This document shows positions 23,531-31,556 of a stretch of 64,000 nucleotides of DNA, piece after piece (the first letter of the stretch is position 1; each line of letters starts with the position of its first letter). The notes below the pieces were generated by a model. It worked only from the letters and a program-made list of their open reading frames with translations. It ran no database searches and had not been told where the DNA came from. The position numbers and the translations under genes were made by a program. Origin of the DNA: an uncultured Chloroflexia bacterium (GTDB lineage: Bacteria; Chloroflexota; Limnocylindria; Limnocylindrales; CSP1-4); NCBI GenBank assembly GCA_963720755.1, contig CAVRGP010000015.1:64001-128000 (forward strand). Direction: 5' to 3'.

Positions 23531-24343
23531 TCATCGTCGGTCGATGTGACGTTCTGGTGTCGGCGCCCTGGCCCATCGCCGATCGCCATCCACGCCGACC
23601 GTGATGGGCATGCCGAAGGCGCTGCTGAGCACGTCGCTCCGGATGGTGTCGTCGAGAGGCCCCGCAGCGACCGCGGTGCCACCGGCAAGCACGAGGGCGT
23701 GGCCGAAGCCCGACGGGATCTCCTCCACGTGATGCGAGACGAGGACGATCGCCGCCGGGCGGGCCGCAGAGGCGAGTTCTGCCAGGTCGGCGATGAGCGT
23801 TTCGCGGGCCCCGAGGTCCAGGTTGGCGGCCGGCTCGTCGAGCAGGAGCAGGTCCGGGTCCGGCATGAGCGCCCGGGCGATCGAGGTCCGCCGCCGCTCT
23901 CCCGCCGACAGGCTGCCGTACGGATGATCGGCGATCCCCTCCAGCCCGAAGCGTGCGAGGAGCATGCGTGCCCGTGCCTCGTCCTCCTCTGTGTAGACGT
24001 GCCACCACGGTTCGGTGGCCGCATGGCGGGCGGTCATCACCAGGGTCAACGGGCTGAGGTCGGCCCGAAAGAGACCTTCGACGGCGCTCCCGGCGGCCCC
24101 GATCCGCCGGCGATGCGCACGCGCATCCACCCGGCCGTAGCGTTCTCCCAGCACGTCGACGGTCCCAGAGGTCGGCCACAGGTCGAGGCCGATCACCGAC
24201 AACAGGGTCGTCTTGCCGGACCCGTTCGGTCCGATGACGACCCACCGCTCGCCGGTTTCGATGGTCCAGTCGAGTGGCCCCAGGATGGTCTGGCCCGAGC
24301 GCCGCACCCGAAGTCCGCGGACTTCGACGACCGGGCGGGTCAT
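23531..24343 (-). CDS. ABC ATP-binding protein (ModF/YlmA-like) without an adjacent permease
   Basis: 'GPNGSGKTT', 'LSAGE', 'LLDEP', 'VSHHVEEI'. Confidence 0.88.
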
Positions 24344-27117
24344 GGGGCCGGTGGCACCGGTGGCGTGGGCGTGGGCGTGGGCGACGGGGTCGGGCTCGGG
24401 GTCGGCGTCGGTTTCGGGGTCGGCGTCGGGGTCGGTGGTGGCAGGCTGGGTGGCTCGGACGGGACGTCCGAGGGCGACGGACTCGGGGTGTCGGCCGGCG
24501 TGGGCGTCGGGCAGGGCAGTGGCGCCGGACCGGATCCCGACGGGGACGGGATCGCGAAGGACGGGATCACGCCACTCGGATCCGGCGTCGGCAGCAGGTA
24601 GCACGTCGGTGATGGCTGCGGACCGCAACGGCCGCCGACCAACGCTCCCCAGGATGCGCCGTACGGCTGGTAGCCGCCGTTGTAGAAGTACGCGGTGCGG
24701 GTCCGGCTCGGCCCGCCAAGGGTCCCCGGGCCTCGCTCCGCACGACGCAGCCAGTCGGCGTCGGCGGTCATCCAGGAAGGGAACCCGGTCTCGACCTGGA
24801 CGCGCACGACCACGTCGATCCCGCAGGTCTCGGGGGCGAGCGGCGTGGTCGGCTGCGTGCCCACGATGTACCACTCGTTGACCGTGTTGCTGCCACTGGA
24901 CGGCAGCCCGGTCCATGGATCGATCCTGACCCTGGTGAGACCATCGGATGGCGGCTTGAAATCGGTGATCGGCCAGCTCGCCGTGGCCTCGTTCAGGAAC
25001 CCCTGCCAGACATAGGTGGAGACATCGATGGAGAACAGCGGTTGGCTCGACGTCGAGACCGGGGTGTTGTCCGAATTGCCATTCCAGACACCGACCGCGA
25101 GGGCATAGGCGCCTGCGGCCCGGCCCTTGTTCGTCGGGGCCGCGATGTATCCGTACGCGTTGAGGTCCTTGGTGTCGTTGTTGGTGCCGGTCTTGAGGGT
25201 CGCCGGCCGTCGGCCATCTGGCGACCGGATCGCGAACTTGCCCCAGTAGGGGTTGACCCTCGGGTTCGTGTTGCCGGCGAGGATGTCGGTCACGATGTAG
25301 GCGGCCTGCGGGCTGACCGCCGGCGTTCCGGCGGGTGGGACATACGGCGCGACGACGTCGGCGCCCTTGGTGTCCGTGACCGTCAGGATGGTCGTGTGGG
25401 GGATCTCCTGACCGCTGTTTGCCAGCGTGCCGTACGCGGTGACGAGGTCGACGGGACGGACCTCCTGGACGCCAAGGGCGAGCGCGAGTTCCGCGGTTCG
25501 CTGGCCCTGGAAGACCATCCCGAAGTCCTGGGCCTTGGCGAAGGCATGGGCGGGTCCGTTGATCGCCATCGCCTTGACCGATGGGATGTTGAGCGAGAAC
25601 TGGAGGGCGTTCCGGACGCGGACCGGGCCTCGTTCAAGCCGATCGGCGTCATTCGGGGTAAAGCCCTTGCCGAAATCCGTGCCGACGTCCATCAGCATCG
25701 TCCCGGCCGTCAGGGATTTGTCGTTGATGGCGATCGCGTAGTTGAACGGCTTGAATGCCGAGCCGGGTTGGCGGAAGCCTTTCCCGATGACGTCGTACTG
25801 AGGCTGGAACTTGTCCTTGGTCGAGGTCGCGTAGTAGTTGGCGCTCCCGACATAGGCGACGAGTTCGCCGGTCTGGTAATCGAGCGCGACCAGGGCGCTG
25901 TTGCGCAGGTCCTTGTTGCGCAGGTTCTGCATCCACGGCTCGAGCTTCGAAAACCCGAGCGCCTTGGCCGCAGCCGTGGGGTTCTTGGCATGGGGCACGA
26001 TGGCCGCGGCCTTGACCCACTTCTCGGCGATCTTCTGAAGCCCGACATCGAGCGTCGTGGTCACCCGCAGGCCACCCAGCTGGAGAGCGTCACAGGTCGG
26101 GGTATCCGGGCCACATAGCTTGGTCGCGAGCTCGTCTCGGACCGCCCACACGAAGTGCGGCGCGATCCAGCGCGTGGCCGACTGCCCCGCCAGGACGACC
26201 GGGTCGCTCTGCGCGGCGATGAATTCGGCGGGCGAATACTGGGTCCCGGACATCGGCGTCCGGCCATCGGCCAGGAGTCCCAGGATGAGATCGCGGCGCT
26301 GGACCACGGCCGAGTCCGGCTGGACGACGAGTTCTGATACGGGGCAATCCTCACCGTCGGCGACGACCGTGGTGCATGTTTCCTTGGCATTGCGCACGAG
26401 GTCGTAGTTGGATGGCGACTTGGGCAGTCCGGCGATGATCGCGGCCTGGGCGGGGTCGATATCGGCCAGGTCGATCCCGAAGTAGGACTGGACCGCGGCC
26501 TTCACGCCGTAGCTCTGGTTGCCGTAGTAGTTCTGGTTGAGATACGCGGTGATGATCTCCTGCTTGCCCTGCACACCGGGGAAGGCGGCCGTCACCCGGA
26601 CCGACTGGATGATCTCCTTGAGTTTGCGCTCGAGGTTCCGGCTGGGATCCTGGACGAGTGCCGGATCGAGCAGGCGGGCTCGCACCAGTTGCTGGGTGAT
26701 CGTCGACGCACCGCGGCTGTCGCCACGCAGGGAGTCGAGCGCTGCCGAGACGATCGCGACGGGATCGAAGCCGGCGTTCTCCCAGAAGGTCTTGTCCTCG
26801 ACCGCCGTCGTGGCGTCGAGCAGGATCTTGGGGATCTCGTCGAACGTGACGACCTCGCGCTGGGCGTCGCCGAAGCGAGCCAGCTCGACCTTCCCGGTCC
26901 GGTCGTAGATGACCGTCTCCTGGGGCAGGACGTACTTGGTCAGAGTGGTCGGGTCGGCGAGGCCGGACGCCAGCGAGTTGTAGGCGCCGACCGCCGCAAT
27001 GGCTGCGATGGCGCCGACGCCCGCCATGAACAGGAACAGGATGACCGCGATCCAGCCGAGGGTCGTCGGTTTCGTTCGGCGGGGCCGTCGGCGAGTGGCC
27101 TGGTGGGTTGCGGTCAT
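24340..27117 (-). CDS. class A penicillin-binding protein (transglycosylase/transpeptidase)
   Basis: GT51 'AVEDKTF', 'GASTITQQL', 'RKLKE'; transpeptidase SxxK 'SAFK', SxN 'SLN', 'KTGT'; Pro/Thr tail. Confidence 0.95.
24355..24520 (-). repeat. low-complexity (Pro-Thr/Ser)n coding repeat at the PBP C-terminus
   Basis: Degenerate hexamer repeats encoding [17 protein letters not shown]. Confidence 0.7.
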
Positions 27118-28327: not shown

Positions 28328-28522
28328 TCAACGCCGGGTCACGGCCATGAATACGCGCCTGATCGATCGGGCCGCGAGGACCACGACTAGCCCGAGGACG
28401 ATCGCGCCCGGGCCGTGCGGAAGTCCGTTTCCCGTCTCGTACAGTCCGAGCCGCTCGAGGAAGCTACCCGCTCCTTCTGATCGCTCGCTTTCGCCCGGGT
28501 CCCGGGTCGGCTTGCGGGCCAT
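28328..28522 (-). CDS. small single-TM protein (64 aa) coupled to the Crp gene
   Basis: TGATG overlap with the Crp stop; hydrophobic 'AIVLGLVVVLAA' segment followed by basic residues. Confidence 0.55.
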   Translation of the reverse strand: MARKPTRDPGESERSEGAGSFLERLGLYETGNGLPHGPGAIVLGLVVVLAARSIRRVFMAVTRR

Positions 28523-29223
28523 CAGCGGTGGCTCCGTTCCTGCCAGCGCCCGACCTGGGCGGCAACGCGGCCGACATCGAGGATCTCGATCGAACCAGCT
28601 GTCGTGGCGACCAGGCCCTCGTCGCGGAAGGCGTGAAGGATCCGTGCGACCACCTCGCGGACCGTGCCGACGCTATCCGCGAGCTTCTGCTGGGTGATCC
28701 TGACGATGACCCGCCCGGACGCCGGGTCAGGATGGGCCAGGTCCAGGAGGTGGCCCGCCACCCGCTCCCGCATGGAGCCGAAGGTGCTCGATGCCAGGGT
28801 GGCGTACAGGTCCTCGAGGCGCTGGCTCAGGACGGACATGACGACGAGGCTGGCGGCAGGGTCCGACTCGATGATCCGAAGCATGAGCTTCGCATCGAAC
28901 TCGAGGACCCGACAGTCGGTCACGGCCGCGATCCCGAGTGGGGCCCGATCGCCGGCGATCGGATAGACATTGCCGATGGTTCCTCCAGGTCGAATATAGC
29001 GGACCGTCATCTGACGACCGTCGGCCGCGCCGAGGTAGGCCCGGGCGATCCCATCGACGATCATCCCGGTCCTCGTCCAGTTCGCTCCCGGCGGAAAGAT
29101 CGTCTCGTCCGCACGGGCGGTCCATTCGGTCGCTTCGGCCTGGATCCGTTCACGAACGAACGGTCCCAATCGGTCGAGGAACGAGGCATCGCCCGCGACG
29201 ACACCGCTCGCTGGGTCGGGCAC
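28522..29223 (-). CDS. Crp/Fnr family transcriptional regulator
   Basis: cNMP-binding-like barrel ('G...DGRQ.T......G') and HTH 'ITQQKLADSVGTVREVVARIL'. Confidence 0.92.
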   Translation of the reverse strand: MPDPASGVVAGDASFLDRLGPFVRERIQAEATEWTARADETIFPPGANWTRTGMIVDGIARAYLGAADGRQMTVRYIRPGGTIGNVYPIAGDRAPLGIAAVTDCRVLEFDAKLMLRIIESDPAASLVVMSVLSQRLEDLYATLASSTFGSMRERVAGHLLDLAHPDPASGRVIVRITQQKLADSVGTVREVVARILHAFRDEGLVATTAGSIEILDVGRVAAQVGRWQERSHR

Positions 29224-29264
29224 GACAACTCCAGTCCGTCAGCCGGGTTGGGGACGCCGGCCCG

Positions 29265-29280
29265 TGTGACTTGGGTCACG
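29265..29280. promoter_or_regulatory. CRP-type binding site
   Basis: TGTGA-CTTGGG-TCACG between the divergent crp gene and the secreted-protein operon. Confidence 0.75.
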
Positions 29281-29397
29281 GACCACCGTTGCCGTGACGC
29301 ACCCCGAACGTCGGATAGCGCGGCGAGGCTACACCGCCTTTCATCAGGACACAACCAGATCCAAGCAGCCAAGCAGAGATATGGAGTCACACCGACC

Positions 29398-29787
29398 ATG
29401 AAGCGAGCCCTCATCGCGGCGATTGCCGCGCTCTTCACCTTCGGCGGCGCCTACGGCCTTGCCGCCAGCCTCAACCTCACGACCGACGGTCTCGGGGCGG
29501 CGAGCGGCGTGGTCGCCGCCTGTCAGGCCGGACCGCTCACCGCGACGTACACGTCGGCCTATTCGGCTGGGACGCCCGGATATACGGTCGCGACCGTCAC
29601 GGTGACCGGGCTGACCTCCACCTGCTACTCGAAGGCGTACCGGATCACCCTGACGGGCGCCGGCAATGCCTCGCTCGGGGAGGCCAATGGGACGACTCCC
29701 GCGACCGGTGCGAGCTTCGCGGCGACGTTCTCGCCAGCGGTCAGTGCGGCGACGATCACCGGCGTGTCGGTCGTCATCAGCGGCTGA
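29398..29787 (+). CDS. small secreted two-Cys protein, candidate major fibre/pilin subunit
   Basis: Signal peptide MKRALIAAIAALFTFGGAYGLA, then 'ASLNL..DGLGAAS..VAAC'; Ser/Thr/Ala/Gly-rich beta pattern; strong codon bias; GGAG RBS. Confidence 0.8.
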   Translation: MKRALIAAIAALFTFGGAYGLAASLNLTTDGLGAASGVVAACQAGPLTATYTSAYSAGTPGYTVATVTVTGLTSTCYSKAYRITLTGAGNASLGEANGTTPATGASFAATFSPAVSAATITGVSVVISG

Positions 29788-29855
29788 GCGGGCTGAGGGT
29801 CGCGCCGGCGGCGAATGCCGTCGGCGCGACCCTCGTGCTGCGAGGCCACCCACGC

Positions 29856-30224
29856 ATGCGCCGACATCTGATCGCGGCCGCGGTTCTCGCCGTTTCCAGC
29901 GGGTACGTCGTGGGGAGTGCGGCGTCCGCCGCGTTGACGGTGCGGACCATCGGGGCGGCATCGGTCGCCACGGCCCGGTGCACGAACGCCGGGCTGACGA
30001 TGGTTCCCACGCTGTCCGGCAGCGCCGTGGCTTCCGTGGCCGTCGGTGGTCTGCCGGCCGCCTGTGGCGGCGCCACGCTGCGGGTGACCGTCAACGACGG
30101 AACGGTCGCCGGAAGTGGATCTGCGACCGTGCCCGCGGCAGGCGGCTCGGTGGCGGTGACGATCGCGAGCAGCCCGGCCCTGAACGCCCACGTGGAGATC
30201 GACGCGGTCCTGGAGGGTCCATGA
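29856..30224 (+). CDS. secreted two-Cys paralogue of 29398..29787, candidate minor subunit
   Basis: 'AASAAL.V..IGAAS.....C' and 'VASVAVGGLPAAC...LRVTV' align with the preceding gene. Confidence 0.75.
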   Translation: MRRHLIAAAVLAVSSGYVVGSAASAALTVRTIGAASVATARCTNAGLTMVPTLSGSAVASVAVGGLPAACGGATLRVTVNDGTVAGSGSATVPAAGGSVAVTIASSPALNAHVEIDAVLEGP

Positions 30225-30965
30225 CGACACGACTGGGCAGGCGGTCCTCGGCCGGTGTGCTGCTCGGCTTCGGCCTTGCGCTTGGCATCCTCGGCGGACG
30301 ATCGGTCGAGGCTGGCGACGCCGCCAGCCTGTCGATCGGATCGAGCGCGCTCACCCCGTATCATGACCTGCGTCCTGACCGCGGCCACGACGACGACGAC
30401 GGTCGTTTCCGACGCCGAGGTTCGGCAGTCGAACGGCAACACCAACTACGGGACAGCGACAAGCCTGACGGTGACGTCGAGCGGGAGTGCCAATCGACGG
30501 ATCTATGTCAGCTTCGATCTGACCGCCTGTTCGCCGGCCATCCCGTCCGGCGCGACGATCCGCCTGGCGACTCTGCGCCTGTTCGCCACGGCGCTGCCGG
30601 GTGCCTGCCGCACGCTGGACCTCTTTCGAGTGACTGCCGCCTGGACCGAGGCCGCCGTCACCTGGAACAACCAGCCGTTCGGGACCACGATCAACAACCC
30701 CGCCACCGCTTCGCGGTCGGGCTCGTTCGATGTCGGGACGCCTGCCGGCTGCCAGAACCGGACGACCGCCGCGTACGTCGCCGGCGCGGGCGTGACCGCC
30801 GATGTCGCCGTATTCGTGGCGGGCAGCGCGACGAACCGCGGCTGGATGATCCGGGACGATGTCGAGGGTTCGGCCACGGCTCGGACCGCCACCTTCGCCT
30901 CGAAGCAACTCGGGACGCTCGCGAGGGCTCCGCAACTCATCGTGACCTACGTGGCCGGGCCATGA
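30221..30965 (+). CDS. secreted DNRLRE/CBM96-like domain protein, with a +1 frameshift at about 30360
   Basis: Signal peptide and 'AASLSI' in the frame from 30221; then 'DAEVRQ....TNYG', 'RRIYVSFDL', 'ATLRL', 'WTE..VTWNNQP', 'FASK......PQL.VTY' in ORF 30255..30965. Confidence 0.78.
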
Positions 30966-31477
30966 TCGCCCGCCTGCGGTCGTCGGTCGGGACGTCACTG
31001 CTCCTCGGTCTCGTGCTGATCTGGTTCCTCCTGCTCCGCCCCGTGTCGCTCGGTGGTTCGGCGTCCTGGATCGTGATCCGCGGGTCGTCCATGCTGCCCG
31101 GACTGACGTCCGGTGACCTGGTCATCGTCCAACGGGCCGGCAGCTATCGGATCGGCGATGTCGTCGCCTACCGGGTCGCGGCCGGTGACATCGGCGCCGG
31201 GCACGTCGTGATCCACCGACTGATCGGCGGCGACGGATCGACCGGGTGGGACGTCCAGGGTGACAACAACGATGCGCCCGATCCGTGGCGACCGACCGAT
31301 CACGACATCGTGGGGGCCTCGTGGCTGGTCATCCCGGGAGCTGGCCAGGCGATCGCGTGGATCCACCAACCGGTGATCCTGGCATCGTTGGCCGCGGCGT
31401 TCGTGGTCGCGTTCATCGTCTGGCGGCCGGCGGGCGACAAGGGTCGCGCCCACCCCGGGACGGTGCCACAGGCCTGA
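30962..31477 (+). CDS. sipW: signal peptidase I, S26B/SipW (ER-type) subfamily
   Basis: Catalytic Ser in 'GSSMLP', His general base in 'VIHR', 'GDNN..PD'; N- and C-terminal TM helices. Confidence 0.88.
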   Translation: MIARLRSSVGTSLLLGLVLIWFLLLRPVSLGGSASWIVIRGSSMLPGLTSGDLVIVQRAGSYRIGDVVAYRVAAGDIGAGHVVIHRLIGGDGSTGWDVQGDNNDAPDPWRPTDHDIVGASWLVIPGAGQAIAWIHQPVILASLAAAFVVAFIVWRPAGDKGRAHPGTVPQA

Positions 31478-31556
31478 CGACATGCGTCGGCCGCCGTCGA
31501 TGAGGCGGGTCCTCGTCGCCAGGATGTCGGGAACAGGCAGGTCTGCGAGGACTACG

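Follow-up and report, generated by a model that had tools for sequence, protein, structure and literature searches.

The window analysed here is a stretch of 64 000 nucleotides (nt) from an uncultured Chloroflexia bacterium of the Limnocylindrales (GenBank assembly GCA_963720755.1); its G+C content is 68–70%, and it forms part of contig C15 in a genome of 3.0 Mb. Between positions 28522 and 31477 it carries genes for two small secreted proteins, a protein with a DNRLRE-type body and a signal peptidase of the endoplasmic reticulum (ER) type, beside a gene for a Crp/Fnr-family regulator (Table 1). An initial annotation had put these forward as a candidate SipW-processed fibre or pilus operon under Crp control, with a major subunit, a minor subunit, an adhesin or tip protein and a peptidase, and we judge this list of parts to be right. 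The four operon genes are co-oriented on the plus strand, as had been described, and the last three are joined by ATGA overlaps that can be read in the sequence at 30221–30224 and 30962–30965; the regulator gene stands outside this array, on the minus strand and divergent from it. A search of the locus for a sigma-70 promoter or a terminator gave no match, and no RNA data set containing the sequence was listed.

Table 1. Features of the fibre locus, in window coordinates (pLDDT, predicted local distance difference test; Ig, immunoglobulin).
Feature	Position	Strand	Remarks
Crp/Fnr-family regulator	28522..29223	−	Divergent from operon, accessory; Pfam cNMP_binding and HTH_Crp_2
CRP-type box TGTGA-N6-TCACG	29265..29280	+	133 nt upstream of subunit A; one mismatch to consensus
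Subunit A, probable shaft pilin	29398..29787	+	129 aa; signal peptide 1–22, N-terminal extension 23–41, Cys42–Cys76, six-strand Ig-like body
Predicted donor segment of subunit A (mature residues 23–41)	29464..29520	+	Length conservation, pLDDT, coevolution
Subunit B, paralogue, probable minor/adaptor pilin	29856..30224	+	122 aa; second position in 14/20 class loci
Tip/initiator gene 3	30221..30965	+	Signal peptide, donor-type motif and CBM96/DNRLRE, without subunit body; in the assembly, frame broken by an extra base near 30361–30364
Dedicated ER-type (S26B, SipW-like) signal peptidase, Ser-His-Asp	30962..31477	+	171 aa; TIGR02228 over cut-off

The subunit family

Subunits A and B, paralogues by tblastn (39% over 119 aa), have in common a signal peptide, AAS-x-L and LGA motifs, two cysteines and a terminal β-strand, which bears out the shared pattern first noticed in them; no further copy was found in their own genome. 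In a 144-row alignment of the family, C42 and C76 are the only invariant columns (144/144), and columns 23–26 hold A (93%), S or T (90%), L (94%) and N or G (71%), a start that does not fit the AxFxD of TasA. In the B subunit of the source strain the Leu of AASL is replaced by Ala.

The two-cysteine subunits could not be assigned to a named family, then or now. Neither matches any Pfam or NCBIfam family at E ≤ 1, the Ena/DUF3992 family of Pfam included, and among the 144 members no curated family matches more than seven, always weakly. PF12389 and SipW-cognate models are not among the best 25 of 28 NCBIfam and 25 of 45 Pfam families for these members, the remainder being weak single-member matches. 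The best E-values in sequence searches of the PDB with A1 and A2 were 0.72 and 0.068, and the ESM Atlas returned unnamed clusters only, with no usable named match. Longer fused forms of the subunit were not found among 8000 candidates, which is weak evidence; record P0131 is an apparent frameshift fusion of A and B. We found no publication on the family in a literature search that covered few subscription papers.

A query with the single protein P0001 gave 491 proteins among 925 candidates, the named homologues being Candidatus Limnocylindria/Chloroflexi, and the family profile gave 1069 clusters at 50% identity, of which 352 reach E ≤ 1e-10. For most matches identity is 71–86% for A and about 47–66% for B. 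The spread is patchy: a search with P0001 alone found a counterpart in none of the 40 nearest genomes, and the family occurs in 30 of 301 genomes of the class (a count that includes G000 and one unpublished genome, G274) and in 8 of 301 of the phylum. Twenty class regions were fetched, from 19 of the 29 other positive genomes, and 14 of them show the order A-B-DNRLRE-peptidase. A GTDB scan with one subgroup motif yielded 101 relatives, of which 79 loci were kept; most belong to Actinomycetota (Cellulomonas, Nocardioides, Gaiellaceae, Acidimicrobiia, Thermoleophilia), a minority to Chloroflexota, plus two to Acidobacteriota metagenome-assembled genomes. Three class genomes (G030, G031, G036; loci L051, L052) measure only 1.1–1.2 Mb, yet carry two to six divergent subunit paralogues each; in the two regions fetched from this group (L051, L052) a long-branch peptidase adjoins the subunits.

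Predicted fold and coevolution of the subunits

In the AlphaFold2 (AF2) model of the subunit A precursor, a signal helix (residues 2–24) is followed by a segment without secondary structure (25–47) and by six strands (48–128). In the model of the mature protein, residues 1–15 have pLDDT values under 50 and the body values of 84–93, and the unfolded N-terminus and six strands appear both with and without the signal peptide. In all rows but one (143 of 144), the predicted cleavage site and C42 lie 19 or 20 residues apart. As expected of the filament proposed by the initial annotation, the models and the coevolution described below argue against subunits that are complete monomers: the N-terminal 15 residues are predicted to be unfolded and the body to be a six-strand Ig-like sandwich.

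The best structural matches listed are generic Ig/FnIII domains, with Z-scores up to 6.6 and a root-mean-square deviation of about 3 Å over 79–86 aligned residues. The match to single-domain chains stops well short of the C-terminus (residues 7–115 of 142 in 8fha, 7–114 of 148 in 8f90), whereas in 7ui8, a 113-residue chain of a ‘split’ domain, it reaches the chain end; the last strand therefore seems to be missing from the subunits. Foldseek against the PDB gave no match at E ≤ 0.001 for either model, and the best 50 matches of the VIA structure searches include no TasA, AbpA, thread, Tafi, cannula or pilin filament chain, which does not amount to an exclusion.

Coevolution was analysed by mean-field and pseudolikelihood methods on 447 sequences (effective number, Neff, 254). 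The ladders b1–b2, b3–b4, b3–b6 and b2–b5 were recovered, with C42/Q43 next to C76/T73, and indicate an Ig-like sandwich with the predicted topology A-B-E/C′-C-F and no strand G. Beyond the body, the pair S36–S124 ranks 11–13 among all pairs and stands alongside A34–V126, V39–I120, G31–S128, G31–K79 and A40–G89. The best of 156 registers for residues 32–39 is antiparallel to strand 120–128 (strand F); its score of 2.04–2.06 compares with 2.0–2.2 for the body hairpins and with a maximum of 1.11 in 25 shuffles, and it ranks 1–2 in the protein-database subset.

Couplings of V39 and A40, to I120 and G89, fall at one end of the domain, those of C42/Q43, to C76/T73, at the other, and the A80–A118/T119 coupling runs from top to bottom. 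Because residues 39–40 and 42–43 couple to opposite ends, and because the single-chain AF2 model does not build the pairing of 32–39 with strand F, we infer that this pairing lies between subunits. A parallel signal at offset 9 (23–28 with 32–37), the top offset in all five analyses, would fit a chain whose consecutive subunits have adjacent donor segments.

Tip, peptidase and regulator genes

The body of gene 3 matches NF033679 (85.1 bits, cut-off 34) and Pfam CBM96 (E = 2e-21), so that the DNRLRE-like body first recognized is real, but its reading frame is not intact. The ATG at 30221 yields a signal peptide and AASLSIGSSALTPY, in a frame different from that of the CBM96 body. Compared with all five aligned relatives, the window contains one extra base, near 30361–30364, and in one soil study two of four runs gave contigs with one base fewer at 30361 or 30364; one soil contig without the extra base shows just two other differences in 151 nt. 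At locus L033 gene 3 is an intact single open reading frame (ORF) of 239 aa. Similar single-base breaks in L037, L040 and L043 suggest an assembly error, which we consider likelier than decay as the origin of the extra base.

Interchangeable genes occupy the position ahead of the peptidase. Signal, motif and DNRLRE body are combined there in 40 loci; in 13 of 20 inspected gap loci, signal and motif precede a domain of about 190 aa with weak ConA/LamG-type matches (Pfam E = 2e-4 in one of the 13; a sialidase lectin domain, E = 0.012). The motif was scored with a 13-position matrix trained on subunits, against a background of 582 hydrophobic N-termini of the own genome. Scores exceed the 99th percentile of this background in 33 of 39 DNRLRE tips (the frameshifted L070 being left out) and in 10 of 13 ConA-like tips. 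The tip proteins share the N-terminal segment of the subunits, as initiators do in SipW-type fibre systems.

Subunit A itself scores 33.8 and subunit B 9.7. Among 158 subunit bodies, 134 carry the motif and 24 score low, the latter including all four RTX-extended paralogues and six last paralogues of Cellulomonas; the others are merely divergent. Proteins with donor only, with donor and groove, and with groove only are what a polar strand-exchange chain would be expected to comprise. The RTX-extended bodies (L047:7000–7800, L057:5872–6768, L075:5517–6446, L097:5826–6620) join a subunit body to RTX calcium-binding repeats, without donor motif, and are candidate terminators or anchors.

At L055 (5412–6890) the peptidase ORF continues into a second signal and an AASLGG..L motif, and then into two Trp/Cys-rich repeats that look CBM2-like but have no Pfam match. 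This would be a third tip type, either fused to its peptidase or joined to it through an assembly error. L112 (5510–8092) ends similarly. A strong motif match on contig C1 falls in the signal peptide of an amidase-like ORF and was judged to be due to chance.

The peptidase exceeds the TIGR02228 cut-off (56.1 against 51.85) and has Ser43, His85 and Asp101, as the ER-type Ser/His assignment required. Against the Bacillus SipW model NF046067 it scores 20.8 bits, far below the equivalog cut-off of 190, and by these profiles it would be called SipW-like, not SipW proper. The conserved linkage of subunits and peptidase is borne out by the neighbourhoods: a peptidase lies next door in 20/20 class regions and 69/79 GTDB loci, 89 of the 99 fetched loci overall, and seven of the ten GTDB loci without one are cut off within 1 kb downstream. 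Ser, His and Asp are present in all 88 full-length locus peptidases. Long C-terminal extensions were seen in the peptidases of L116 (4286–5497) and L074 (6238–7482), the tail of the former resembling a degenerate EAL domain, although no Pfam match was obtained. Contigs from two runs omit 32 nt just 3′ of the peptidase stop (window 31489–31522).

Control by Crp, which had been proposed for the operon, is supported in part. The box at 29265–29280 is one of 17 one-mismatch CRP-type sites in the 3.0 Mb genome. An orthologue-like crp lies beside four of 99 related loci, or 5/100 with the window, and the window and all four of these share a box at −117 to −135; in two of the four crp is downstream, and the retention of the box there argues against mere autoregulation. 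Only one of the other 16 class loci has a two-mismatch site, at −12. The 79 GTDB loci yielded no crp, and four of 78 have a box at two mismatches, none better, with about two expected; boxes so near chance argue that Crp control is not general. Lineage-specific control of a few Limnocylindria-class loci is plausible from box and linkage. The recognition helix of the window regulator reads R-E-x-x-x-R, a pattern like that of CRP; the protein presumably lacks the cAMP-pocket residues.

A hexamer, RGTACY, was noticed upstream of subunit A (L033–L035, L038, L041–L043, L045, L046, L051); it occurs at a distance of 66–152 nt in nine of the ten four-gene loci without crp and is not found at this distance in the five Crp loci. 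Overall it is present in 11 of 21 regions against 7% of genome windows (0/500 shuffles; it was spotted post hoc), and is possibly a site for another regulator. Upstream of the locus, a 925-aa ORF at 24340–27117 on the minus strand, class A penicillin-binding-protein-like with a Pro/Thr-rich tail according to the ORF list, is unrelated to the operon.

A proposed donor-strand fibre and its alternatives

We think it probable that the product of the operon is a thin linear fibre, on the surface or in a matrix, assembled by donor-strand complementation in the absence of chaperone and usher; the ORF list shows no chaperone or usher gene between 28522 and 31477, although no family search was made. 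Neither the monomer fold, nor the family searches, nor the peptidase linkage spoke against the separate filament family with a dedicated peptidase that had been suggested. Precursors would be exported by Sec and cut by the S26B peptidase after A-x-A, which would free the exact N-terminus A-[ST]-L-x6/7-L-G-A. Each subunit is predicted to be a disulfide-stabilized Ig-like sandwich (sheets A-B-E and C′-C-F) without a G strand. Coevolution suggests that strand F of subunit n+1 receives residues ∼32–39 of subunit n in antiparallel pairing, and that residues ∼23–28 probably continue beside the next donor strand. The CBM96 protein would start the chain and end at the distal tip as a putative glycan-binding adhesin, because it has a donor motif but no groove, with B as adaptor and A as shaft by analogy with Tafi. 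The fibre might be either released into the matrix or held by an unprocessed subunit, since the operon has no anchor gene. In the source lineage the Crp-type regulator would control the promoter.

The same donor-strand logic is described for TasA/TapA (PMC9674648, PMC10151520) and for Tafi (PMC11821415), and the TasA donor touches two subunits (PMC9674648). Like Bacillus subtilis tapA-sipW-tasA (PMC9674648, PMC10151520), the present system has a dedicated ER-type signal peptidase and an initiator that shares only the N-terminal segment, and it would polymerize without chaperone through donor residues that reach two subunits ahead. Unlike TasA-type proteins, the mature subunit has 107 aa (against ∼170–250 aa in the fetched Chloroflexota PF12389 proteins), reads A-[ST]-L...L-G-A in place of A-x-F-T-D...F-x-A-G, and has an invariant disulfide. 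The peptidases here also lie on the other side of a quick tree (105 columns) from 12 peptidases of TasA-type loci (Shimodaira–Hasegawa-like approximate likelihood ratio test, 89), which is weak evidence. Alignment with hhalign to 17 Chloroflexota PF12389 proteins gave a probability of 17%, over the signal peptide only. With no profile hit and a different motif besides, the subunits are, as judged from sequence, not members of the TasA family, in a comparison that covered PF12389-type proteins. Genes of the TasA type (PF12389) are present in 15 of 201 Chloroflexota genomes, one of which belongs to the same genus, and many are accompanied by a SipW-like gene (L132–L151), so that the phylum has two parallel fibre kits; the own genome has no PF12389 match.

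Haloarchaeal Tafi comprises a laminin-G tip (TafC), an adaptor (TafE), a shaft (TafA), an anchor (TafF), a peptidase (TafD) and a regulator (TafB) (PMC11821415, PMC12337348). The present system has nearly the same parts and proposed order, with a lectin-fold tip, its own peptidase and a linked regulator, and one tip type of the family also has weak ConA/LamG-like matches. It differs in its bacterial host and Sec-type signals, in a tip with donor motif but no pilin domain, in the lack of a TafF/TafG (DUF5305) counterpart in the window, and in the lack of any Pfam link between its subunits and the archaeal families. The ‘TasA superfamily’ of AbpX, AbpA, CanA and thread fibres has a jelly-roll core and HHsearch links of 80–95% to PF12389 and relatives (10.64898/2026.01.04.697558, PMC12518558, PMC9245690); AbpX homologues have an aromatic residue at position 2, an acidic residue at 4 and a peptidase with 10 transmembrane segments (10.64898/2026.01.04.697558). 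Both have a TIGR02228 peptidase next to the subunit genes, together with minor subunits and tips that vary, and ours would likewise form donor-strand polymers, whereas a predicted six-strand Ig sandwich, an A-[ST]-L start and a 171-aa peptidase set the present system apart.

Chaperone–usher pilins, too, have one disulfide near the N-terminus. As described for FimA and PapA, they are Ig folds without the last strand, made whole by a neighbour's N-terminal extension (PMC11821415), a design that our subunits share as far as prediction goes; the hosts here are of monoderm type, the peptidase is dedicated and the adhesin donates rather than accepts a strand.

Several points weigh against the proposed fibre. 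No filament has been observed, polymerization being suggested by the free N-terminus, the missing last strand and coevolution; the tip gene is frameshifted in the source assembly; no anchor gene was identified in the operon; and three full-length loci with complete flanks (L117, L123, L129) have no peptidase nearby. The donor motif covers generic A-x-A cleavage residues, and a Z-score under 8 may mean merely a common β-sandwich. The coevolution signal for the donor register is moderate: it drops to rank 3–7 in the GTDB-only subset (Neff 117), a rival parallel register (offset 87–88) scores 1.6–1.66 in the full set, and the shuffled controls ignore kinship between sequences. The argument against intra-chain pairing is a geometric one, drawn from contact ladders rather than from coordinates.

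The same chemistry might stop at a short stalk (tip-B-A, few units) whose stoichiometry is fixed and whose role is to display or release a lectin domain. We consider this unlikely: although three of the four genes are ATGA-joined, the window lacks anchor or assembly genes and many loci consist of one subunit gene plus tip, a 68-nt gap separates gene A from the coupled genes and A is far better conserved than B, as would be expected of an abundant major pilin. Moreover, A carries both donor and groove, so that its self-extension would be unhindered, and coevolution that pools many single-subunit loci still shows donor–groove coupling. It is very unlikely that the proteins are secreted monomers or strand-swapped dimers, in which the N-terminus completes the fold within the chain or reciprocally, CBM96 is an independent lectin and the motif serves solely for peptidase recognition. 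The motif does abut the cleavage site, coevolution is blind to within- versus between-chain contacts, and TasA itself has a self-complemented monomeric form (PMC9674648). However, AF2 shows no self-complementation, the couplings to opposite ends of the domain and from top to bottom stand against it, and body-only paralogues without the motif occur in the same operons.

A further alternative concerns the strain and not the family: the locus may be decaying, with a real frameshift in the tip gene and the Leu-to-Ala change in B, and would then make tipless fibres or none. The extra base, the low motif score of B relative to A and the patchy spread of P0001 all fit such decay, yet we find it doubtful, given the near-identical soil contig without the base, the similar breaks in related few-contig assemblies, and the intact state of the other three genes, crp and box.

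Beyond the donor-strand fibre itself, we tentatively entertain, at somewhat less than even chances, the idea of a pilus class that evolved independently and has no relation to the TasA jelly-roll superfamily. Its minimal 107-residue Ig pilin, without strand G as in chaperone–usher pilins, would self-assemble in monoderms with a signal peptidase only. Lectin domains of the CBM96, ConA-like and a third type would serve as plug-in tips and acceptor-only proteins as terminators, and the whole would be a common but so far overlooked adhesive fibre among Actinomycetota and Chloroflexota of soil and freshwater. The novelty is in the subunit family; the fibre design is already known, the general plan having been described for TasA, Tafi and AbpX.

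Such a fibre would give a function to more than 1000 clusters of hypothetical proteins and would enlarge the small set of chaperone-free donor-strand fibres by a distinct subunit family. Because cultured Cellulomonas and Nocardioides carry the family, the proposal is directly testable, for example through adhesion to plant polysaccharides. A fibre encoded by four genes, with a plug-in motif of ∼15 residues and naturally interchangeable tips would also make an attractive display scaffold. For abundant but poorly studied soil lineages (Gaiellaceae, Acidimicrobiia, Limnocylindria), it would supply a candidate attachment or biofilm fibre.

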